From the NCBI GenBank assembly GCA_965247535.1, contig OZ252018.1, positions 1,013,046-1,077,045 of the forward strand: a stretch of 64,000 nt of DNA, in the 5' to 3' direction. Both the position numbers and the translations under genes were made by a program. This DNA is from Dehalococcoidia bacterium. Lineage in GTDB: Bacteria > Chloroflexota > Dehalococcoidia > Lucifugimonadales > UBA2985. Within the stretch, counting starts at the first letter, position 1. Every line of letters begins with the position of its first letter. This document shows positions 4,192 through 63,019 of this stretch, one piece after another. The notes under the pieces are model-generated. The model saw only the letters and a program-made list of their open reading frames with translations. It was not told the DNA's origin and ran no database searches.

Positions 4192-4344
4192 CTTCCTTTT
4201 CCGAATCCTTTCGTAGGATTTAGGTAGGATTGTGATGCTCTGAACCTTGCGCGCCATATCCTATCAGATATTCCTGCGCCTTGCAATGCCAGTCTCAGTC
4301 ATTTGGCCTGCCGCGAGGCACTCCTCCGCCCCGAGCGGACTCAG

Positions 4345-4373
4345 CTTGAATGGCAGTTTGGCCTATGGTATTC
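4345..4373 (+). promoter_or_regulatory. Sigma70-type promoter for tRNA-Pro
   Basis: TTGAAT (4345-4350), a 17-nt spacer, then TATTCT (4368-4373). The -10 ends 11 nt before the first tRNA nucleotide. Confidence 0.45.
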
Positions 4374-4384
4374 TACCGTATGTA

Positions 4385-4461
4385 CGGGGTGTAGCGCAGC
4401 CCGGAAGCGCACTTGCATGGGGTGCAAGGGGCCGTCGGTTCAAATCCGACCACCCCGACCA
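4385..4461 (+). tRNA. tRNA-Pro (anticodon GGG), CCA encoded
   Basis: Hand-folded cloverleaf. Acceptor CGGGGTG/CACCCCG. D arm GCGC-AGCCCGGAA-GCGC. Anticodon stem CTTGC/GCAAG with loop ATGGGGT (anticodon GGG). Variable loop GGGCC. T arm GTCGG-TTCAAAT-CCGAC. Discriminator A plus CCA. Confidence 0.9.
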
Positions 4462-4519
4462 GTCGTATCGAAGCCCCTCGCGGGGCTCTTGGCGCCACGT
4501 TTTCGCTCACACCGCCCCG

Positions 4520-6037
4520 ATGCGTCTGCCCTGCGCGCCTGCGCAGTTCGCGGCCCGCATCCAAGCCTCCGAGCAGGAAGTGCCCTTGCGCCAGGATAGC
4601 GGCAGAAGCAGCAACTCCCCAGCCCGCTGGACGACCGTTGGACTGGTCGCGCTGGCCGTATTCTTCACAGCGCTCGACCAAACCGTGGTGGCAACCGTGC
4701 TGCCGCACGTCATGGTCGACCTGCGGATTCCCGTGTCGGAGCTGGACCAGGCGTCCTGGATCATCACTGGATACCTGGTGGGCTACACGGTCGTCATACC
4801 CCTGGCTGCCCGCCTGGCCGATGCCCACGGCCACGCCATCCTCTTCCGGCTCTCGCTGGTGCTGTTCGGTGTCGCCTCGGTCGCGGTAGCGCTCTCTCCA
4901 GATCTGCCCTGGCTGGTGGGCTCCCGCGTTGTACAGGCGGCTGGAGGCGGCGCAACGATCCCGATAGGCCTTGCCCTCGCCACACAGGCCATGCCGCGCC
5001 ACCGCCGCGCGATCGCGGTGGGAATAGTGGGCGCCGCTGCCGAAATGGGCGTGGTGCTCGGCCCTCTGTACGGGGGCGTCATCACCGAGGCCTGGGGCTG
5101 GCGATGGCTCTTCTGGCTGGACGTGCCGCAGGCACTGCTCATCCTGGTCCTGCTCCAAAACCTGCCGAAGACGTGGAGCCGGGGCGTCAAGGTCGACTAT
5201 GCGGGCGGGCTGTTGATGGCCGTGGCCCTGACGCTGACGGTGGTGGCGCTCTCGCGGCGCGACCTGTTCGACGGCTCTTCGGCTGTGCCTTACGCGCTGG
5301 CTGCGGCCGCAGCATTAGTGCTCGTCGCGCTTGTGTGGCTCGAGAGGCGGATGGAGCAACCGCTCTTGTCGCCAGACTTCTTCCGATCGTGGTCGGTCCT
5401 GGCAACACTGTCGGCAAAACTGCTCATGGGGGCGTCCCTGATAATTTCGATGGTGACGGTGCCTCTCATGGCCAACACAGTCCTCGGGCGGGGCTCACTG
5501 GAGGGCGGGCTGATGCTCATGCGACTCACGGCGGCCGTGCCGGTGGGAGCGCTGCTCGGCGGATACCTGGCGTACAAGCTGGGGCATCGGTTCGTATCGG
5601 CGCTGGGGCTGCTGCTGGCGGCCGCAGGCCTCTTCCTCATGAGCGGGTGGACGCCCGACGAAGGCGATACGATGCTAACGCTGCACCTCCTGCTGGCCGG
5701 TTTCGGGTTCGGGCTGGTGATCGCGCCCCTGTTCGTGGCCGCGATGGACGCAGGCCCCGACGACTACCAGGCGACAGCGGCCTCCATGGTGACGGTTGCC
5801 CGCATGATAGGCATGGCGCTTGGCCTCGCGGCGCTAAGTGCGTGGGGCATGGACCGGTTCCTGCTGCTCGCCGCGGAGCTGCCTTCGGCTCTCTCGCCGG
5901 ACTACGGCGAGCTGCTCGCGGACGCCTCGATCACGCTGTTCCAGGACTTCTTCCGGGTATCGGCGTGGCTGTGCGTTGCTGGGCTGGTACCTGTAGCTGC
6001 GATGGGCGGAATAGGTCGGCGCGCAGTGGGCGAGTGA
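4520..6037 (+). CDS. MFS transporter, drug:H+ antiporter-like (EmrB/QacA-type, about 14 TM segments)
   Basis: The track ORF 4247..6037 overlaps the tRNA, so I use the first ATG after the tRNA (4520). Many hydrophobic segments. The LDQTVVATVLPHV start and the GxxxDxxGRR-like loop (LAARLADAHGH) are typical of the family. Confidence 0.8.
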   Translation: MRLPCAPAQFAARIQASEQEVPLRQDSGRSSNSPARWTTVGLVALAVFFTALDQTVVATVLPHVMVDLRIPVSELDQASWIITGYLVGYTVVIPLAARLADAHGHAILFRLSLVLFGVASVAVALSPDLPWLVGSRVVQAAGGGATIPIGLALATQAMPRHRRAIAVGIVGAAAEMGVVLGPLYGGVITEAWGWRWLFWLDVPQALLILVLLQNLPKTWSRGVKVDYAGGLLMAVALTLTVVALSRRDLFDGSSAVPYALAAAAALVLVALVWLERRMEQPLLSPDFFRSWSVLATLSAKLLMGASLIISMVTVPLMANTVLGRGSLEGGLMLMRLTAAVPVGALLGGYLAYKLGHRFVSALGLLLAAAGLFLMSGWTPDEGDTMLTLHLLLAGFGFGLVIAPLFVAAMDAGPDDYQATAASMVTVARMIGMALGLAALSAWGMDRFLLLAAELPSALSPDYGELLADASITLFQDFFRVSAWLCVAGLVPVAAMGGIGRRAVGE

Positions 6038-6071: not shown

Positions 6072-7319
6072 ATGAGTTCGACGAGCGGAACGCAGACACA
6101 GAGGTACCACGGGCTGGACGGCCTGAGGGGGTTTGCGATGCTGCTGGGCATCCTCCTCCACGGCTCGCTGCCATATTTCTCGCGAATCAACGGGTTTGAG
6201 TTCGTTTGGCCGGCGGACGACGACCAGTCCGTCCTGTTGGCCCTGGTGTTTGATTTCATCCACTCGTGGCGTATGCCGACGTTCTTCTTGATGGCGGGGT
6301 TCTTCGCCCACCTGGTGCTGGAGCGCCGCTCCACGTCGGTCTTCATCGTTGACAGGCTCAAGAGGATAGGATTGCCGCTCCTAATATTCGGGGCGGTGAT
6401 GGCGATTATCGTGCCGGTCATCTGGGTGTACGGGCGGCGCGGCGAAGTGTCGCTGGAGATTCTGCGACGTGTACTGGAGTACAGGCAAGACCTCGATTCC
6501 AGCGGCGAGCTGGTAGCACATCTGTGGTTCCTCTACTACCTGCTGGTTATGTACGCCACGCTGATGGCCTTTCGATGGCTGGGAGGGCTTGGCCGAGCGT
6601 GGCCAGTAGCGGCAGCAGGAATCCTTCGCCTTGGTTCGTACCTTGGCAACGCCGTCTACTCTCGCATACCAGTCCTGTTGGCGCTGGCGGCGGTTGTGCT
6701 GCTCGTTATCCGCGCGTCAGACGAGTCGAAACCGATCTGGCCGCTGAACGTGCCGGATCTGCTTTACGGCATGCTGTTCTTCTTCTACGGGTACGGGCTC
6801 TACGCGCGACGACAGTTCATCGACGAGCTCAGAGGTCCGGGGACGCTGCCCGCGCTGTTGGGGGCCGCGGCCGTGGTGTACCTTGTACACATCGTGCTGC
6901 TTGGAGTCTTGGACGAAGCGAACAAACAGGGCGAGAGCCAGGGGGCCATCGAGTTACTGTGGATTGTCCGAACTGTCTTCTACGGGGCGGCGGCTGCGCT
7001 GTTCAGCGTCGGGCTGGTCGGCCTGTTCGAGCGGGTTCTGAGGACGCCGCAGCCGTGGGTGCGCTGGCTCGCCGACTCCTCTTACTGGATTTACATCATG
7101 CACCTGCCGGTGGTGGCCTTTCTGACGTTCTATCTCGCCCACCTCGACAGGCAGGGCCGGCTCGAGAGTCTGACGGGCCTCAGCTGGAGCGCGGAGGCCA
7201 AGTTCCTGGTGGCGTGCGTCGCTACCGGAGCGCTGGGCGTTGTGACGTACCGGTACCTGGTAAGGTACACGCCTCTCGGAACACTGCTGAACGGTAAGAG
7301 GACGAGGGGTCAGAACTAG
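6072..7319 (+). CDS. Acyltransferase family 3 (membrane O-acyltransferase, OpgC/OafA-like)
   Basis: 415-aa polytopic ORF. The N-terminal YHGLDGLRGFAMLLGILLH signature matches acyltransferase_3. Confidence 0.8.
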   Translation: MSSTSGTQTQRYHGLDGLRGFAMLLGILLHGSLPYFSRINGFEFVWPADDDQSVLLALVFDFIHSWRMPTFFLMAGFFAHLVLERRSTSVFIVDRLKRIGLPLLIFGAVMAIIVPVIWVYGRRGEVSLEILRRVLEYRQDLDSSGELVAHLWFLYYLLVMYATLMAFRWLGGLGRAWPVAAAGILRLGSYLGNAVYSRIPVLLALAAVVLLVIRASDESKPIWPLNVPDLLYGMLFFFYGYGLYARRQFIDELRGPGTLPALLGAAAVVYLVHIVLLGVLDEANKQGESQGAIELLWIVRTVFYGAAAALFSVGLVGLFERVLRTPQPWVRWLADSSYWIYIMHLPVVAFLTFYLAHLDRQGRLESLTGLSWSAEAKFLVACVATGALGVVTYRYLVRYTPLGTLLNGKRTRGQN

Positions 7320-7433
7320 CGCCGCATGGCTCGGCGCATCGTTGAGGGAATGGCCCGGTTGCTGTAAGCTTAGGGTAGCAGGGCGCGGTCGTGCGCGTTC
7401 TGCGATCGTGCGCTCAGCGCGCAGCCGGACGAA

Positions 7434-7841
7434 TTGAATGACGCGGCACAAGTAAGGATTAACGTGAGCACTACAACGTATCGAGAGCAAAGCCGGGCGT
7501 TCCTGGCGCAGGCGTCGGAGGAGCTGGAGCGCGGCGACCTGAGGCAGGCGTCTGAAAAAGGCTGGGGCGCGGCGGCGCAGATCGTCAAGGCCTCTGCCGA
7601 CGCGCGCGGCTGGGAGCACGATCGTCACGCAACGCTGTTTCGTGTCGTCCGCGGGCTGGCCGATGAGTCGGGCGATGCGGAACTAAGGTACATGTTTGCG
7701 GTCGCCGGTGAATTGCACAGCAACTTCTACGAGCTTTTCCTCGACGCAGAGGACGTGGAGACTTACCTTCACCGGGTGGCCGCGTTTGTAGACAGGGTAG
7801 AGACTCTGTTGCCGGAAGGGCTGAACGGCGAGAAGGGTTAG
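7434..7841 (+). CDS. PaREP1-family (HEPN-like, all-helical) protein, paralogue 1
   Basis: YREQSRAFLAQASEELERGDLRQASEKGWGAAAQIVKA...RGWEHDRHATLF...AGELHSNFYE matches my recollection of the archaeal PaREP1/PaREP8 pattern (ASEK..GAA..VKA, RGW.H..H, LH.NFYE). The real start is probably the GTG about 30 nt downstream (RINVSTT...), after AAGGA. Confidence 0.6.
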   Translation: MNDAAQVRINVSTTTYREQSRAFLAQASEELERGDLRQASEKGWGAAAQIVKASADARGWEHDRHATLFRVVRGLADESGDAELRYMFAVAGELHSNFYELFLDAEDVETYLHRVAAFVDRVETLLPEGLNGEKG

Positions 7842-8255
7842 CCCGAGCGCCTAATCCGTGCCTTTGGTGACGCGGCACAAGTGAGGATTAACGTGGGCAC
7901 CACTGCGTACCGAGAGCAAAGCAGGGCGTTCCTGGCGCAGGCGTCGGAGGAGCTGGAGCGCGGCGCCTCGAGGCAGGCGTCAGAGAAGGCTTGGGGTGCG
8001 GCGGCGCAGTTCGTCAAGGCGGCGGCGGAAGTACGCGGCTGGGAACATCATCGCCACGCAACGCTGTTTCAAGTGGTACGCGCTCTGGTCGAGGAGATGG
8101 GAGGTCCGGAGATCAGGCGTTTGTTTGCCGTGGCGGGAGAGTTGCACAGTAACTTCTACGATGGCTTCCTGGATCCGGAGAATGTAGAGATCCACCTGCG
8201 CGACATGGAAGTGCTCGTCCAAAGGGTGGAAGGTCTACTGGCGAGAGACTGAACG
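7439..8255 (+). repeat. Tandem duplication (period about 429 bp) comprising both PaREP1-like genes and their 5' leaders
   Basis: TGACGCGGCACAAGT(A/G)AGGATTAACGTG(A/G)GCAC... occurs at 7439 and 7868. The first roughly 150 nt of the two copies are nearly identical at nucleotide level, including the untranslated leader. Confidence 0.85.
7881..8252 (+). CDS. PaREP1-family (HEPN-like) protein, paralogue 2
   Basis: About 65-70% identical to the preceding ORF by eye, and about 88% over the first 45 residues. The same motifs are present. Confidence 0.6.
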   Translation: MRINVGTTAYREQSRAFLAQASEELERGASRQASEKAWGAAAQFVKAAAEVRGWEHHRHATLFQVVRALVEEMGGPEIRRLFAVAGELHSNFYDGFLDPENVEIHLRDMEVLVQRVEGLLARD

Positions 8256-20970: not shown

Positions 20971-22140
20971 CTACTCCTGCGCCCGGTGTCCCTCCGCGAC
21001 CAGTCGTTCCAGGACCTCTGCCACCTTGTCCACCTCGCTGGCCGTGTTGAAGTAGTGTGTGCTGAAACGCACGCCGTCCGGGCCGTGGACGGTCCGCCCC
21101 ACGATGCTGAACCTGTTCTGCAACGCGGAGACGAGGTCCTCCGGCGGCCAGCCTTCAAGTCCGAGCGTGACCAGCCCGCACGCGGAATCCTGGTCCGTCG
21201 TGCTCAGCAGCTCACAGCCCTTGATCATGGTCGCGCGCTCGCGGAGCATGTTTCCCAGGCGCATGGCGTGCGCCTCGATGCGTTCGATGCCAATCTCCGA
21301 TACCAGCCGCAGGCTCTCGGTGAGGCCGGCTGCCAGGCCTGGGCTGTTGGAGACCAGCGAGAAGCGCCCCAATGCGCCGCGTCGGAACCCTTGCCGACCT
21401 GCCTCCAGCGCGTTGGTCGAAAACAGAGGCTCCAGCATTTCGCGCCGGTCCGGGTGAACGTACAGGGCGCCGGTGCCCACCGGTCCCATCGGCCACTTCT
21501 GGCCGGACATTGTGTAGAAGTCGCAGGCCAGGTCGGTGACGTTTACGGCGATCTGGCCGACGCTTTGCGCGCCGTCCACCAGCACTGGCACCCCGGCCGC
21601 GTGCGCCGCCGCCGTGATTTCACCGATGGGCAAGCGCAGGCCGCAGGTGAACTGAATGTGGCTTAGGCCCACCAGCTTCGTGCGTTCGGTGATCGCGGAC
21701 TTGACGAGGTCAAGCGCCTCTGCGGCCGTGGACATGGGCTGGATCGGCGCGGACGTCACGTTCACACCATTGCGTTCTGCCACGACCTTTGCGGGAGCCG
21801 TTAGCGCGGGGTGCTCGAGGTCGCAGATGAGCAGCTCGTCGCCCGGCTGCCAGTCCATGCCGTAGATGACTACGTTCACGCCCTCGCGAGTGCTGTGTGT
21901 GAGGATGACGTCGTCTTCGGAGGCGCCGAGCAGGCTGGCGGCGGCCGCAGTGGCCTCTCGATTCGCCTCCCGCGTGAGTTCGACCCCGCGGGCGCTTGCG
22001 GGTCCTATCATGGCCTCCTGCTCCAGCGTCTCCGCCACGCGGCGGAGCGCCGACGTGGGCGTTGGGCCGGCCCACCCGGTGTTCAGGTAGATTAGGTCGC
22101 GAGTGATCGGCAGGAGCTCCCTCAGCTGGTCAGTGTTCAT
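20971..22140 (-). CDS. Class-V aminotransferase-fold PLP enzyme (cysteine desulfurase / selenocysteine lyase / isopenicillin-N epimerase-like)
   Basis: I chose the start at ATG 22140 (MNTDQLRELLPITRDLIYLNTGWAGP). The PLP-lysine motif is SGQKW and the fold pattern is typical. The longer track ORF (to 22428) adds an implausible Arg/Ser-rich extension. Confidence 0.8.
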   Translation of the reverse strand: MNTDQLRELLPITRDLIYLNTGWAGPTPTSALRRVAETLEQEAMIGPASARGVELTREANREATAAAASLLGASEDDVILTHSTREGVNVVIYGMDWQPGDELLICDLEHPALTAPAKVVAERNGVNVTSAPIQPMSTAAEALDLVKSAITERTKLVGLSHIQFTCGLRLPIGEITAAAHAAGVPVLVDGAQSVGQIAVNVTDLACDFYTMSGQKWPMGPVGTGALYVHPDRREMLEPLFSTNALEAGRQGFRRGALGRFSLVSNSPGLAAGLTESLRLVSEIGIERIEAHAMRLGNMLRERATMIKGCELLSTTDQDSACGLVTLGLEGWPPEDLVSALQNRFSIVGRTVHGPDGVRFSTHYFNTASEVDKVAEVLERLVAEGHRAQE

Positions 22141-22313
22141 CTCTACCGTCCGAATAATTGAGTGCGCCGCTGCGGGGACCTTGACGCCGTGTGCGATGGC
22201 ACAAGCGGCGGTGGAAGCGGCAACCGCAGCCATTCTACCACGGAGCCGCCGGAGTGACCAATCGCCGGAGGGTGTGGATTGCCGGAGGGCGGGATAGCCG
22301 GTACACTCGCTGC

Positions 22314-23060
22314 GTGTTCCGGATACGTCACAACCTCCTCGCCGCAGAGTCGGCGGCGAGGCGCGGCCTCTTTCTGCTTGTGCTGACGGCGTTGACCGCG
22401 GGCTGTAGTGGGGATGAGCCGTCACCAACAGCGACGACCGCGGCCACGCCGACTGCCATGCCCGCGGCGACGGCTACTGCGGCCGCTCCTCAGACGCATA
22501 CCCCGTCGCCCTCGTCAACCCCACTAGCCACGCTGACGCCCGCGCCGACCGCGACCCCGACTCCTGCGCCTCCGCCGGCCGCCACTGCAACTGCGGCCTC
22601 CACGCCAACCACGACCGCAACGTCGACTCCAACAGCCACGCAGGGCGACCTCTCGCGGTTCGGGCCGCCGGACCCGGAGGCGGGAGCCGCGAGCGCGTCC
22701 GAGGCGCTGATAGCGGGGCAGGTCTTCCAGCTTGAGGTCGTAAGCACGCCTGCGGAGCGCGCCCGAGGCCTGATGGGCCAGCAGCGCATACCGGACGACT
22801 ACGCGATGCTGTTCGTGTTTGAATCCGAGCGCCGGCTCAGCTTCTGGATGAAGGGTACGCTCATTCCGCTGGACATCCTCTTCCTGGACTCGAATGGCAT
22901 GGTCGTGGACGTGCAGACGATGATCCCGCAACCCGGCGCGCCGGACAGCGAGCTGATCGTGTATACATCGGCTAGGCCGGCACGATACGCGATGGAGATG
23001 AACGCGGGACTGGCTGAGGCGCTCGGCGTGGTGCCCGGAGCGGCAGTGCTCTTCGACTAG
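22314..23060 (+). CDS. DUF192-family lipoprotein with a long Thr/Pro/Ala linker
   Basis: C-terminal FQLEVVSTPAERARGLMGQ...MLFVFE...FWMKGTLIPLDILFLDSNG is the DUF192 pattern. The lipobox is LTALTAGC. About 75 aa form a TPA-rich low-complexity region. A GTG start at 22314 is assumed. Confidence 0.7.
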   Translation: MFRIRHNLLAAESAARRGLFLLVLTALTAGCSGDEPSPTATTAATPTAMPAATATAAAPQTHTPSPSSTPLATLTPAPTATPTPAPPPAATATAASTPTTTATSTPTATQGDLSRFGPPDPEAGAASASEALIAGQVFQLEVVSTPAERARGLMGQQRIPDDYAMLFVFESERRLSFWMKGTLIPLDILFLDSNGMVVDVQTMIPQPGAPDSELIVYTSARPARYAMEMNAGLAEALGVVPGAAVLFD

Positions 23061-59043: not shown

Positions 59044-59072
59044 ATTATAGGTGAGGCGTGATGGTGTTGCAA
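59044..59072 (-). promoter_or_regulatory. Probable aspS promoter
   Basis: The minus strand reads TTGCAA (59072-59067), a 17-nt spacer, then a perfect TATAAT (59049-59044), about 38 nt upstream of the TTG start. Confidence 0.5.
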
Positions 59073-59077
59073 GGACA

Positions 59078-60196
59078 TGTACTCGTTCAGGACATATGAG
59101 ACAGAGGGGTCTCCGGGTGGCACTGAAGAATATACTCCATGGGAGAGTGATAGCCAAGGGACTGATGTGGGCGGTGTGTGTTGTAGTAGAGTTCGTGGTC
59201 TCTGAGAGCTGGGGTGATGTCCTGGACGGTCCAGTCGCCGTCGTAGAAGGCGTAGAACTCCTCCTTGTGGGTGCGGTGAGCTCGTTCGGCGAAGGCGTTG
59301 AGCTTGGGAGAATGAGGAGGAGTGGTGAAGAGCCGGATGCCTCGGTCTCGGCAAGCGGTCTCGAAGTCGGCCTGGAACTCTGATCCATTGTCCACCTGGA
59401 TGGCGCGTACAGGGAAGGGGCATCGTGTCTGGAGGGCGTCCAGGATGCGGGTGGCGGTGTTGGCGGTAGCACGTGAGGCTATGAGTAGGGTGTCCCATCG
59501 AGAGACGACATCCCGTGCGCTGAAGTGTTTGAGGACTACGCCTGGGAGAGGGCGGAGGTCGGTGGTGTCCAGGTGGAGGAGGTCACCGGGGGCCTTGGGG
59601 CGGTAGTCCCTTGGGGTGCGGCGTAGGGACGGCGGACGCGGCGTTTAGCGCTGGCTACACCGGGGCGTGGTGGTTCCTTCAGGACCCCGCGACGCTTGAG
59701 GTCGGCGAGTATGCGGCCGATGGTGGAGGTGGAGACCATCCATCCACGCTGTCGCAACAGGGGAGCCAGCTTGTCCTTGCCGAACCATGGCGGCTGCCGG
59801 CGCAGGTCCTCAATCGCTGTCACCAGCTGCGGGTCCCACTGGGGCGTCCGCCTGCGGTGGGGTGCACGCGACCTCGGCTCCAGACCCGGGATGCCAACCT
59901 CCCTGCGACGCCGGGCCCAGCGGTACAGAGTGGAGCGGGGTATGCCTATCACCTCAGCAGCGACTTGACCCCGCAGACCCAGCGCCTGGAATTCCCGCCA
60001 CAGGCGCAGTGCCCTCTCCCTTGCTCTCGCTTCGTCACTGACCGGCTCCGCAGTGGTTCTCGCCAGCCGGTCCGCTTGGTACAATACCCTGGGTAGCCCA
60101 ACTACCCGCATGGGGGGCCCCCTTTAGTGTTTACTCACCTCAAGGATGGCCCCTCCTTTTCGTCTTGACTAGTCTCACATGTTTCTGAACGAGAAT
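59078..60196 (-). mobile_element. IS481-family-like insertion sequence (about 1.12 kb) with a 6-bp target-site duplication
   Basis: Imperfect terminal inverted repeats: TGTACTCGTTCAGGACATATGAGAC at the left end, against GTCTCACATGTTTCTGAACGAGAAT at the right end. Direct repeat AGGACA at 59072-59077 and 60197-60202. Boundaries are good to +/-2 nt. Confidence 0.8.
59087..60111 (-). pseudogene. IS481/IS3-superfamily DDE transposase, split by a frameshift
   Basis: The N-terminal HTH part is 59536..60111 (…IPRSTLYRWARRR…). The rve core continues in another frame: YRPKAPGDLLHLDTTDL...AIQVDNGSEFQ...NAFAERAHRTHKEEF...YNTHRPHQSLG (DDE). The frames switch near 59590-59615, around a C-run (GCACCCCAAGGG). 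Confidence 0.75.
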
Positions 60197-60209: not shown

Positions 60210-60238
60210 TTGACACTCATATCTGCCTCTTGTAACAT
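60210..60238 (+). promoter_or_regulatory. Sigma70-type promoter for the thrC-like cassette
   Basis: TTGACA (60210-60215), a 17-nt spacer, then TAACAT (60233-60238). The -35 starts 8 nt after the IS target duplication. Confidence 0.5.
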
Positions 60239-60312
60239 CAAGCGCAGCTTGCGCTAGAGGCGCAGGCCATCTGCAACTGTCGGTCGGCGGGCAGCCGAGG
60301 GGGTCTCGTTTC

Positions 60313-61539
60313 GTGAGCTACGTGAAGGGGCTGTTCTGCAAGGAGTGCGGCAGGGAGTACCCTGCCGAGCCGCTCAACGTCTGCGACTTCTGCTTCGGGC
60401 CGCTGGAGGTCACCTACGACTACGATGCCATCTCCAGCGTGATTTCCCGCGAGCGAATCGAGAGCGGGCCGCACTCCATGTGGCGCTATCACGACTTCCT
60501 GCCGGCGGAGGCCGAGAACGCAATCGACATCAACGCCGGCTACACGCCGCTCATAAAGGCGAACAATCTGGCAAGGTCGCTCGGCCTTGATGAGCTGTAC
60601 CTCAAGAACGATGCGGTGAACCCGTCGTTCTCCTTCAAGGACCGGGTGGTCGCCGTCGCCAGCACCAAGGCCCGTGAGTTCGGGTTCGACACGCTGGCCT
60701 GTGCTTCCACGGGCAACCTTGCGGGCAGCGTGGCCGCCCACGCAGCGCGGGCCGGAATGCGAGCCTTCGTGTTCATTCCCGCAGACCTCGAACGAGGCAA
60801 GATACTGGGCGCGGCGGTGTACGGCGCAACGCTCGTTGCCGTGGACGGCAGCTACGACGACGTGAACAGGCTGTGCAGCGAGCTTTCGGACAACTACAAC
60901 TGGGCCTTTGTGAACATCAACATGCGGCCCTACTACGCCGAGGGCAGCAAGAGCCTGGGATTTGAAGTGGCGGAACAGCTGGGCTGGCGGGCCCCCGACA
61001 ACTGCATTGTGCCGGGCGCGTCCGGATCGCTGTTCACCAAGATCTGGAAGGGCCTGAACGAGTTCTCGTCGTCAGGGCTGATCGGCGATGTCAACACCAA
61101 GATGTTCATCTGCCAGGCGGAGGGATGCGCGCCCATCGTGGCGGCCTACGAGGCAGGCGACTTCGCCATAAGGCCGGTGAAGCCCAACACGATCGCCAAG
61201 TCGCTGGCCATCGGCAACCCCGCCGACGGCTACTTCGCTCTGAGGGTTCTGGAGGCTACGGGAGGCTCGGGGTGCGCCGTGCCGGAAGAGGAAGTCGCGG
61301 AGGGCATCAAGGAGCTTGCGGAGATGGAGGGCATATTCACGGAGCCGGCCGGCGGCGTGGTGATAGCCTCGCTGAAGAGGCTGGCCCGTTCGGGGCAGAT
61401 CAAGCCGTGGGAGACCACCGTGGCCTTCATCACTGGCAACGGCTACAAGACGCAGGAAGTGGTGGAGGACACAGTGAGGCCTGTTCTCATCAAGCCCACA
61501 TTCGCCTCGTTTGAAGAGGCCCTGAGCGTGAGGCCGTGA
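60313..61539 (+). CDS. thrC: Threonine synthase family PLP enzyme (ThrC-like, with an N-terminal zinc ribbon)
   Basis: 408 aa. CKECG...CDFC ribbon, PLP-lysine motif SFSFKDR, and the GNLAGS / tryptophan-synthase-beta-like fold pattern. Confidence 0.85.
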   Translation: MSYVKGLFCKECGREYPAEPLNVCDFCFGPLEVTYDYDAISSVISRERIESGPHSMWRYHDFLPAEAENAIDINAGYTPLIKANNLARSLGLDELYLKNDAVNPSFSFKDRVVAVASTKAREFGFDTLACASTGNLAGSVAAHAARAGMRAFVFIPADLERGKILGAAVYGATLVAVDGSYDDVNRLCSELSDNYNWAFVNINMRPYYAEGSKSLGFEVAEQLGWRAPDNCIVPGASGSLFTKIWKGLNEFSSSGLIGDVNTKMFICQAEGCAPIVAAYEAGDFAIRPVKPNTIAKSLAIGNPADGYFALRVLEATGGSGCAVPEEEVAEGIKELAEMEGIFTEPAGGVVIASLKRLARSGQIKPWETTVAFITGNGYKTQEVVEDTVRPVLIKPTFASFEEALSVRP

Positions 61540-61581
61540 GCCGGCCGCGGGATTCCCGATCACCAATGGAAGGGGCAGCAA

Positions 61582-61824
61582 ATGGCTAAGCGAAGGGCCA
61601 AGTTCACCTTTCCCAATGACCTCGTCACCGAACCCGTGATCTTCGACCTCGGACACAAGTTCCGCGTGGTCACCAACATCCGCAGGGCGGACGTTAGAGA
61701 GGACGTGGGCTGGGTGATTCTGGAGCTTGAGGGCGAGGACGAGGAGATTGAAAGCGGGCTGGACTGGGTCAAGTCGATGGGCGTCAGGGTCGACCCGGTC
61801 AGCGGGGACGTGATCGAGAGCTAA
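61582..61824 (+). CDS. Stand-alone NIL-domain protein
   Basis: 80 aa. ...EPVIFDLGHKFRVVTNIRRADVREDVGWVILELEGEDEEIESGLDWVKSMGVRVD fits the NIL (MetN C-terminal, ferredoxin-like) pattern. Confidence 0.7.
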   Translation: MAKRRAKFTFPNDLVTEPVIFDLGHKFRVVTNIRRADVREDVGWVILELEGEDEEIESGLDWVKSMGVRVDPVSGDVIES

Positions 61825-61878
61825 CACAGGCCCTATTGCGCTGAAGTGAAAGGCATAGAGGCCCAGGAGGATTACCAG

Positions 61879-62160
61879 ATGAGCGTAGTTGTTCGAATAC
61901 CTACCCCGTTGCGCAGGGTGACCAACGGCCAGGATAAGGCGTCCGTGGACGGGGACAACTTGGTGCAGATCATCGAGTCGCTGGAGGCCCAGTACCCCGG
62001 CCTGAAGGAGCGGCTGTGCGATGAAGCGGGTGACCTGCGCCATTTCGTAAACATTTACGTCAACGGAGAGGACGTGCGATTCTTGGAGGGCCTGGAGACC
62101 GCCATAAGCTCTGGCGACGAGGTTAGCATAGTACCTGCGGTTGCAGGAGGCTCGCGCTAG
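61879..62160 (+). CDS. CysO/MoaD/ThiS-family sulfur-carrier protein with a two-residue extension after the Gly-Gly
   Basis: Start at ATG 61879 (GGAGG 8 nt upstream). [13 protein letters not shown]...[41 protein letters not shown] closely parallels M. tuberculosis CysO (…HRFVNIYVNDEDVRF…DGDSVTILPAVAGG), as recalled. Confidence 0.8.
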
Positions 62161-62255
62161 GCTCAGCTGCAAGCGAAACGCGCGGCCGTCCGCGCAGACT
62201 AACGGTGAGTGTCAGATCCTTCGACTAGCGCAGTGTTAGCGGGCCAGAAACCACA

Positions 62256-62491: not shown

Positions 62492-63019
62492 ATGTTGTAT
62501 ATCTTTGGCGGCCTTCCCGGGGTGGGCAAGACAACGATCGCTGGGGGACTGGCACGGGCCATCGGCGCCGTTCATCTGCGCATAGACTCCATCGAGCAGG
62601 CGTTGCGCAACTCGTCCGTAACCATTTCTGGATCAGAGGGGTACGTGGTCGCCTACGCTGTCGCTGAGGATAATCTGAGGCTGGGCCATTCCGTGATCGC
62701 CGACTCCGTGAACCCGATTGAACTGACCCGAGCCGCCTGGCGAAACGTCGCCGTGCGTGCGGGCACGCCCTACATCGAAGTTGAGATCGTCTGTACCGAC
62801 CAGCCTGAGCACCGGCGCAGGGTCGAGACACGGATAGCCGACATTGCGGGACACCGATTGCCAACGTGGCAGCAGGTGTGCGACCGCGACTACGAGCCCT
62901 GGCAGGCCGGCATCGTCATCAATACGGCGGGACGGCAGACCAAGGCAAGCGTTGCAAATCTGCGGGAGCGGCTGGAACGCTTGGAGCAGGCGCTCCGGGC
63001 GACCCGCAATGGTGAGTAA
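62492..63019 (+). CDS. P-loop kinase-like protein (AAA_33 / zeta-toxin-like small kinase fold)
   Basis: The N-terminus is MLYIFGGLPGVGKTTIAGGLA (Walker A). 175 aa. Substrate unknown. Confidence 0.65.
   Translation: MLYIFGGLPGVGKTTIAGGLARAIGAVHLRIDSIEQALRNSSVTISGSEGYVVAYAVAEDNLRLGHSVIADSVNPIELTRAAWRNVAVRAGTPYIEVEIVCTDQPEHRRRVETRIADIAGHRLPTWQQVCDRDYEPWQAGIVINTAGRQTKASVANLRERLERLEQALRATRNGE

Follow-up and report, generated by a model that had tools for sequence, protein, structure and literature searches.

In Streptomyces albulus, homocysteine is made from O-phosphohomoserine and a carrier thiocarboxylate by MetM and MetO, as the pathway (Hasebe et al., 2024, Appl Environ Microbiol 90:e01247-24) is presented in two papers that cite it (GapMind 2026, bioRxiv 10.1101/2024.10.14.618325; PMC12172450). 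The other pathway members are Mec and MoeZ, O-phosphohomoserine is formed by the HomK family, and MetM is often misannotated as threonine synthase (GapMind 2026). An S-adenosylmethionine (SAM) riboswitch lies upstream of S. albulus metM (PMC12172450). In Wolinella succinogenes, a homocysteine pathway is formed by HcyS, MetY, HcyD and HcyF (Krishnamoorthy and Begley, 2011, as cited in PMC5764234). Here we describe an operon in a 64,000-nucleotide stretch of contig OZ252018.1 from a marine Dehalococcoidia bacterium (the window), which encodes a ThrC-family enzyme, a stand-alone NIL-domain protein and a CysO-like sulfur carrier. By the names of its closest homologues, the organism belongs to SAR202 / Dehalococcoidia in the phylum Chloroflexota. 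Sequence comparisons suggest that it directs a MetM/MetO-type synthesis of homocysteine that depends on O-phosphohomoserine and on a protein thiocarboxylate, with the NIL protein as an additional component, and we put the probability of this assignment at roughly 0.7. The first-pass annotation of the window had named the Streptomyces pair and proposed the same reaction. The pair is as named there, to the extent that the citing papers describe it, and the proposed chemistry is supported by the clade of the enzyme, its linkage to the carrier, riboswitches and gene clustering.

The three open reading frames (ORFs) lie on the plus strand behind one promoter-like site and encode an enzyme of 408 residues (60313..61539), a NIL protein of 80 residues (61582..61824) and a carrier pro-form of 93 residues (61879..62160). 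The gaps between them are 42 and 54 nt, and a purine-rich ribosome-binding site precedes each gene. These coordinates had been given in the first pass together with the family assignments, which hold in profile searches: PF00291 (PALP, 237.5 bits), PF09383 (NIL, 53.5 bits, cutoff 24) and PF02597 (ThiS, 62.9 bits). The order and spacing of the triplet are kept in two close relatives, L001 and L089, and the triplet is widespread beyond them. Since it is conserved in close relatives and recurs widely, the triplet is not a chance juxtaposition.

The enzyme is a pyridoxal phosphate (PLP) enzyme of fold type II and is predicted to be a MetM-type, carrier-thiocarboxylate-dependent homocysteine synthase. 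It also matches two NCBIfam models, NF006050 ‘threonine synthase’ (312.6 bits, cutoff 303) and TIGR00260 thrC (275.4 bits, curated equivalog cutoff 167.1). The PLP lysine, K109, lies in an SFKDR motif in which S107, K109, D110 and R111 are invariant in the homologue alignment. The N-terminus contains about 55 residues that are not found in solved ThrC structures, with four cysteines (C9, C12, C24 and C27) that make up a 4-Cys ribbon. Two other assignments were rejected: cysteate synthase (64.8 bits, cutoff 324.9) and threonine dehydratase, for which the score is far under the cutoff.

The mechanically called ORF of the carrier begins with a GTG at 61846. We took the ATG at 61879 as the start because an AGGAGG lies upstream of it and the protein aligns residue for residue with CysO. 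The best match among solved structures is M. tuberculosis CysO (3dwg_C, E = 2.3e-25, residues 1-91), aligned from end to end, and the resemblance to CysO remarked on in the first pass is real. The second-best match is 4n6e_B, which we take to be the CysO-type carrier of a thiosugar biosynthesis pathway. Both rank ahead of the MoaD and SAMP entries. The C-terminus reads AVAGG followed by two extra residues, SR, as had been reported, and extensions of 1-7 residues are common among carrier homologues of Chloroflexota and Nitrospirota. The GG-SR tail implies that a JAMM-type peptidase is needed to trim the carrier.

The carrier also passes the NCBIfam SAMP1 equivalog cutoff (68.9 vs 60 bits). This score, and the clustering of JAB peptidases and E1 enzymes with the carrier in relatives, would fit a carrier that acts mainly as a SAMP-type ubiquitin-like modifier and regulates the PLP enzyme instead of donating sulfur. 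We find such a role scarcely credible. An E1, a JAB peptidase, a beta-grasp carrier and a PLP enzyme make up the established sulfur-transfer set of CysO/CysM and MetO/MetM, and the best structural relative of the carrier, CysO, is a sulfur carrier.

Related loci and the link to methionine

Related loci were collected by scanning 185,579 species genomes once, with an alignment of six ribbon-bearing homologues as the query, and a representative protein search was also run for the enzyme. The survey counts given below rest on the best 80 loci, which are 58-71% identical. They come from Chloroflexota, Nitrospirota, Nitrospinota, Cyanobacteria, Acidimicrobiia and other Actinomycetota, Aquificaceae, Planctomycetia, Syntrophaceae, Elusimicrobia and Omnitrophota. 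In 70 of the 80 loci, spread over about ten phylum- to family-level groups, a gene for a CysO-like carrier lies directly 3' of the clade gene. Eight clade members lack both a carrier and a NIL gene beside them, and three more have a NIL gene without a carrier. The fetched flanks contain a ThiF-type E1 in 15 loci and a JAB peptidase in 10, and in relatives the cassette clusters with genes for ThiF, JAB, a HomK-type homoserine kinase, aspartokinase and canonical ThrC. A neighbourhood survey and a phylogeny had been proposed in the first pass. The triplet is conserved in L001 and L089 and recurs widely, and in a neighbour-joining tree the ThrC-like proteins group together in a single clade, separate from canonical ThrC and CysK-like enzymes. 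The 4-Cys ribbon is complete in 77 of the 80 clade members. The exceptions (L051, L062 and L077) belong to the Microcystis group of cyanobacteria and have lost three of the four cysteines, with SGCT in place of CCCC. They make up the subgroup for which threonine-deaminase moonlighting is reported (PMC12172450).

The two paralogues occur side by side. In four genomes the ThrC-like protein and a canonical ThrC are encoded in one locus, and the window enzyme is 37% identical to one such co-resident canonical ThrC. The order in L025 is aspartokinase, homoserine dehydrogenase, ThrC, the ThrC-like gene and the carrier. In L041, L048 and L050 it is the ThrC-like gene, the carrier, NIL, ThrC, a TIGR02535 ‘proposed homoserine kinase’ (HomK; 566.9 bits in L048) and aspartokinase. 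A T-box leader (RF00230, 104.3 bits) was found in L025 at 7116-7542, immediately after the carrier gene and ahead of other ORFs. NF006050 scores clade members at 286-316 bits and canonical ThrC at 189-201 bits. On TIGR00260 canonical ThrC proteins reach 306-328 bits; this model does not discriminate the MetM-like clade, because both co-resident paralogues of L048 pass it (289.5 and 328.5 bits).

These data bear on whether the enzyme is a housekeeping threonine synthase, with the NIL and ThiS genes unrelated to it or involved in a different pathway, for example the synthesis of molybdopterin or thiamin. Such a role would be in keeping with its scores above the curated cutoffs of both ‘threonine synthase’ equivalog models, with the databases, which uniformly name its close homologues threonine synthase, with the lack of a second thrC within the window, and with the clade members described above that lack an adjoining carrier. 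We consider it improbable. The clade is separate from canonical ThrC and the two are found in one locus in four genomes, the carrier adjoins the clade gene across many phyla, and the database name is the misannotation reported for MetM (GapMind 2026). The carrier has CysO and not MoaD as its nearest solved relative, and neither moaE nor thiG is found nearby. No member of the MoaE/molybdopterin-synthase family is among the Pfam matches of the larger window ORFs or of the L001 genes within 10 kb, although no search aimed at moaE was made. The regulation of the orthologues also argues against a housekeeping role.

A SAM-I riboswitch (RF00162, 52-91 bits) lies immediately 5' of the clade gene in 15 loci, 7 from Actinomycetota and 8 from Chloroflexota, and threonine-related control is not what precedes these orthologues. 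The riboswitch is present in all six Actinomycetota loci of the survey; the seventh actinobacterial case is Nonomuraea gerenzanensis, where the order is riboswitch, ThrC-like gene and a carrier ending in AVAGG. Three Chloroflexota loci (L015, L028 and L030) carry the riboswitch ahead of a full thrC-NIL-carrier triplet. Its position upstream ties the clade gene to SAM-responsive regulation of methionine metabolism. The metM-metO riboswitch architecture reported in PMC12172450 matches that of the riboswitch-bearing survey loci. The window enzyme and carrier are 51.7% and 52% identical to their Nonomuraea counterparts, and the enzyme is 59% identical to the Microcystis homologue. The Microcystis homologue is in turn 51.6% identical to MetM, and its neighbour is 47% identical to MetO (PMC12172450). 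Based on the clade, the carrier linkage, the riboswitch architecture, these identities and the flanking E1 and JAB genes, we assign the window pair to the MetM/MetO kind.

Two sets of loci separate the ThrC-like module from a cysteine module. Six contigs (L083-L088), which carry three different proteins with ThiS fused to NIL, have sulfate-activation genes, followed by a JAB gene, a ThiS of 71-79 residues and a CysK/M-like PALP enzyme of 309 residues, and in L083-L086 by ABC transporter genes. Next come a 420-residue ThrC-like enzyme that is 60% identical to the window enzyme, the ThiS-NIL fusion and an Rrf2 regulator. In the upstream cysteine module of L085 and L086 (1720-2859), ThiS is itself fused to the N-terminus of the CysK/M-like PALP enzyme (379 residues). 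The Nitrospiraceae locus L029 (3957-9161) has two complete sulfur-carrier modules next to each other, both with a ThiF-type E1 of their own: the first consists of ThiS (70 residues), a CysK-like enzyme (309) and ThiF (272), and the second of a ThrC-like enzyme (415), carrier (90), NIL (79), ThiF (270) and JAB (169).

The similarity of the carrier to CysO could instead point to a different sulfur product, either cysteine from O-phosphoserine in the manner of CysM/CysO, or some other thio-amino acid or precursor of a natural product; thiosugar biosynthesis also draws on CysO-type carriers if 4n6e_B is, as we presume, such a carrier. We regard this as very improbable. The presence of a separate CysK/CysM-type PALP enzyme with its own ThiS beside the ThrC-like module implies two distinct products. 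In addition, the SAM riboswitches and the clustering with homoserine kinase, aspartokinase and homoserine dehydrogenase argue against it, ThrC-family enzymes use O-phosphohomoserine, and the cysteate synthase model is missed by a wide score difference, as given above.

In the proposed MetM/MetO-type pathway, a JAMM/Mec-type peptidase encoded elsewhere in the genome would trim the GG-SR pro-form and expose the Gly-Gly terminus. A ThiF/MoeZ-type E1, also encoded elsewhere, would adenylate the terminal glycine and convert it to the thiocarboxylate. The 4-Cys-ribbon ThrC paralogue would bind O-phospho-L-homoserine on the PLP at Lys109 and eliminate phosphate, and the carrier thiocarboxylate would attack C-gamma. 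An S-to-N acyl shift and hydrolysis of the carrier-homocysteine adduct would then release L-homocysteine and regenerate the carrier.

Several observations weigh against this assignment. That the enzyme passes the curated ‘threonine synthase’ thresholds may mean that it has ThrC activity. The window has no gene for an E1 or a JAMM peptidase. Searches of its six frames with profiles from related loci found no ThiF-type E1, JAB/JAMM peptidase, second ThrC, homoserine dehydrogenase (hom), aspartokinase (ask) or homK, Pfam scans of the larger window ORFs agree, and in L001 neither E1 nor JAMM was found in the 10 kb upstream or the 10 kb downstream of the gene. The first-pass annotation had already stated that neither of the two maturation enzymes is in the window. 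No Rfam family was detected in the leader or elsewhere in the window that would indicate a riboswitch, either at the gathering threshold or at E<=5; this difference from metM concerns regulation and not catalysis. The Microcystis homologue has a threonine-deaminase moonlighting activity and no clear MetM function in vivo (PMC12172450). Finally, the link to S. albulus MetM itself is drawn through the literature and actinobacterial homologues.

The NIL protein

The NIL protein consists of the NIL domain only and its translation contains no cysteine. Its presence and position differ between phyla. A NIL gene adjoins the pair in 22 of 34 Chloroflexota loci, in the order thrC-NIL-carrier; the order is thrC-carrier-NIL in all 10 Nitrospirota loci and in the one locus from Elusimicrobia. 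None of the 23 cyanobacterial, 6 actinobacterial and 2 Nitrospinota loci has one, nor does the Nonomuraea cassette, which was read separately. The NIL protein is thus a recurrent third member of the cassette and not a fixed one. The first pass had suspected a fixed member that had escaped description. The second half of that suspicion stands for the literature we could search: in searchable full text, to which the primary MetM paper does not belong, NIL in connection with threonine synthase, a sulfur carrier or a thiocarboxylate leads only to work on NIL-ferredoxins of methanogens and Desulfovibrio, and NIL is not mentioned in GapMind 2026 or in the 2006 survey of prokaryotic ubiquitin-like systems. 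The idea of a fixed member does not stand, given the cyanobacterial, actinobacterial and Nonomuraea cassettes.

In some lineages the two small proteins are joined. In L039 (Planctomycetia) and L049 (Syntrophaceae) the carrier continues past its invariant GG into a fused, C-terminal NIL; Pfam places ThiS at residues 5-91 and NIL at 117-182 of the L039 protein. A database search with this fusion returned ThiS plus NIL in 120 of the 120 best matches (172-193 residues), and the family comprises at least 120 clusters of sequences. Where 48 such fusions were aligned, PAIAGG is invariant and is followed by a linker that varies in length and sequence, and then by NIL. Both in L083-L088 and in L029, the carrier of the homocysteine branch has a NIL and that of the cysteine branch has none. 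The NIL subfamily is well conserved across phyla, and the window protein is 43% identical to its Nitrospira counterpart.

An AlphaFold2 (AF2) model of the NIL protein, of moderate confidence (predicted local distance difference test score 65.7), has a beta-alpha-beta-beta-alpha-beta fold. Foldseek ranks MetN C2/NIL domains at the top, followed by ACT-type regulatory subunits such as IlvH. N32, in a TNIRRA motif, aligns with E. coli MetN N295, by the numbering of a MetN sequence that we assume to be correct. The aligned asparagine is invariant in the 48 aligned fusions. In MetN, the N295A substitution reduces L-methionine binding to an undetectable level (PMC6233128).

We consider the NIL protein very probably a functional part of the pathway. 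It would be a dedicated accessory of the homocysteine branch, a small-molecule sensor with methionine as the favoured ligand, and it would then throttle the enzyme or the carrier cycle post-translationally, as the methionine-binding NIL/C2 domain does in MetN. By analogy with MetN, methionine sensing is suggested tentatively, at somewhat less than an even chance. A further elaboration is doubtful. The NIL protein could be a ligand-gated control element that binds methionine (or homocysteine or SAM) and blocks either carrier maturation and activation or the MetM-type enzyme, and the fused NIL could be a sensor ‘cap’ on the Gly-Gly that is removed by the neighbouring JAMM peptidase. If so, metabolite-controlled processing of a pro-protein, akin to ubiquitin-fusion processing, would set methionine flux in SAR202, Nitrospira, Omnitrophota and other uncultured lineages.

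The same fusions may be explained without a sensor. Because the invariant GG is followed by the fused NIL, activation of the carrier requires that the NIL first be cleaved away, and the variable, disordered linker would suit a sulfur-relay or adaptor protein that presents the carrier to its activating enzyme or to JAMM, or a removable 1:1 C-terminal cap, within an otherwise MetM/MetO-like cassette. A gene pairing in Acidimicrobiaceae points in the same direction: in L071 (5543-6711) and L074 (11685-12730), a gene for a LarE-type ATP-dependent sulfurtransferase (TIGR00268, 298.6 bits; PDB 5udq, E = 2.5e-44) is immediately followed by a NIL gene, 3.5-4.5 kb downstream of a SAM-riboswitch-controlled ThrC-like/carrier pair. 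LarE makes thiocarboxylates, so that it could be an alternative carrier-activating enzyme, or its association with NIL could be unrelated. An apparent LarE-NIL fusion in L074 was an artefact of ORF calling, as the two genes overlap in different frames and are adjacent, not fused. We treat a relay role as a serious rival and rate it as rather unlikely. Methionine is the ligand of the one NIL domain whose function has been demonstrated (PMC6233128), and the aligned asparagine is conserved for the most part. The cysteine-branch carriers of the same operons work without NIL. The cyanobacterial and actinobacterial cassettes also do without it, which indicates that the core chemistry can proceed without NIL. 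In the AF2 prediction, carrier and NIL share no defined interface.

Other points speak against the regulatory role that we favour for NIL. The HMMER alignment with MetN is weak (E = 0.37), and 4 of 38 aligned NIL sequences have Ser or Asp in place of the aligned asparagine. A fixed docking of carrier and NIL was looked for in the AF2 model of a natural ThiS-NIL fusion and not found: the model shows two confident domains joined by a disordered linker (predicted template modelling score 0.42), and we read it as neither for nor against a carrier-NIL interface. The proximity to the LarE-type sulfurtransferase could mean a role in sulfur transfer. Lastly, NIL and the riboswitch are not mutually exclusive. 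The riboswitch is somewhat commoner in Chloroflexota loci without NIL (5 of 11) than in those with NIL (3 of 22, namely 21 searched loci and the window), but replacement of the riboswitch by NIL as a rule is rejected, since L015, L028 and L030 have both.

Flanking sequence and neighbouring genes

The operon is preceded by a putative sigma-70-like promoter, TTGACA-17 nt-TAACAT, at 60210..60238 (plus strand). This site had been named in the first pass and was recovered in a consensus scan with 10 of 12 matches; the region contains 3 promoter-like sites against 0.4 expected from shuffled sequences. It is identical in the near-identical relative L001, and a TTGAC-like hexamer lies upstream in most of the other aligned Dehalococcoidia loci. 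The short 5' leader (60239..60312, plus strand) has a GAGGGGG ribosome-binding site and no riboswitch, and the upstream alignment limits its conservation to close relatives. Downstream, a GC-rich hairpin read from the sequence, GCGCGG-ccgt-CCGCGC (62180..62195), starts 20 nt past the stop codon of the carrier and is a candidate operon terminator of low confidence. Its terminator-like score is on the minus strand only, and the plus strand has no T-run.

An IS-like insertion of 1125 bp (59072-60196) ends 13 bp upstream of the -35 hexamer of the operon. It contains a split transposase, with an HTH_32 ORF at 59536-60111 and an rve_3 ORF at 59087-59395, both on the minus strand, and it has imperfect terminal inverted repeats of about 23 bp and AGGAC at both junctions. 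The insertion is missing from L001. In L089, a 99% relative, other insertions flank the same intact triplet on both sides.

A P-loop kinase-like gene of the AAA_33 family (62492-63019) lies 330 bp downstream of the carrier. It was considered as the homoserine kinase of the cassette and rejected for its narrow distribution and for want of an NCBIfam match; it was seen only in the window, in L001, where it is frameshifted, and at the edge of L089. An Aminotran_5 protein is encoded at 20971-22428 on the minus strand. Its similarity to SufS/IscS-type cysteine desulfurases is below threshold (best 138 bits, cutoff 475), and it could conceivably supply the sulfur for thiocarboxylation of the carrier, yet it lies 38 kb away and is unlinked to the cassette. 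Two adjoining ORFs (7434-7841 and 7881-8252) match the PaREP1/PaREP8 family PF05942 (73.9 and 83.1 bits), which Pfam names archaeal and which is here found in a Chloroflexota genome. A tRNA gene (RF00005, 59.9 bits) at 4385-4458 falls within the mechanically called start of a major facilitator superfamily (MFS) transporter ORF (4247-6037), whose true start should therefore be further downstream.

Comparison with known systems

The MetM/MetO route was described only in 2024, in Streptomyces, and the SAR202 cassette is now placed in what is probably the same clade. The clade is widespread in Chloroflexota, Nitrospirota, Nitrospinota, cyanobacteria, Acidimicrobiia, Planctomycetota and other groups, many of them uncultured lineages. 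If the assignment is correct, auxotrophy predictions and reconstructions of methionine pathways would change for these groups, in which the enzyme is annotated as threonine synthase. The core of the system is already known from MetM/MetO; what is new is that a NIL partner recurs, that its position is permuted and that ThiS-NIL fusions form a large family. The permuted gene order, the fusion family of at least 120 clusters and the finding that NIL keeps to the homocysteine branch lead to a testable hypothesis of post-translational feedback.

Like MetM and MetO of S. albulus, the window operon encodes a ThrC-homologous PLP enzyme and then a CysO-like carrier, and the proposed substrate is O-phospho-L-homoserine. 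The Streptomyces pathway depends on Mec, a JAMM peptidase, and on MoeZ, an E1, and the same needs are proposed for the window cassette. The window differs in that it has no riboswitch, has an additional NIL gene between enzyme and carrier, encodes a carrier with a GG-SR extension and comes from another phylum, Chloroflexota (SAR202). The CysM/CysO/Mec/MoeZ system of M. tuberculosis likewise combines a PLP enzyme, an O-phospho amino acid, a carrier thiocarboxylate and a JAMM hydrolase that releases the product. The window enzyme is of the ThrC type instead of the CysM/CysK type and would be expected to convert O-phosphohomoserine to homocysteine; the surveyed Cys-type modules, unlike the window cassette, have no NIL partner. 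With the Wolinella HcyS pathway, the cassette would share protein-thiocarboxylate-dependent homocysteine synthesis and a carrier C-terminus that is processed before activation. In Wolinella the enzyme is a MetY-type O-acetylhomoserine sulfhydrylase (PLP fold type I), and the pathway has neither a ThrC paralogue nor NIL.

For the NIL protein, the nearest comparisons are with regulatory domains and with a different route to homocysteine. The C2 (NIL) domain of MetN in the MetNI importer belongs to the same fold family, and the asparagine equivalent to N295 is mostly conserved. The window NIL is free-standing, and elsewhere carrier-fused, with no ABC ATPase, and the sequence relation to MetN is remote at the E value given above. 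IlvH of acetohydroxyacid synthase provides a precedent for a small, separate ligand-sensing subunit that controls a biosynthetic enzyme. In the L-aspartate-semialdehyde sulfurtransferase (L-ASST) of methanogens and Desulfovibrio, which consists of a COG1900/DUF39 protein and a NIL-ferredoxin (MA1821/MA1822), NIL is also tied genetically to homocysteine synthesis. The window NIL, unlike MA1822, stands alone without ferredoxin domains, and its partners are a ThrC-like enzyme and a ThiS-type carrier instead of COG1900, with a proposed route via O-phosphohomoserine; COG1900/DUF39 is not among the Pfam matches of the larger window ORFs. In methanogen L-ASST, product inhibition by methionine has been proposed to act through the NIL domain of the ferredoxin subunit (PMC12068725). 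NIL is also required in that unrelated pathway of methanogens and Desulfovibrio, and one small domain would thus accompany two unrelated routes to homocysteine.

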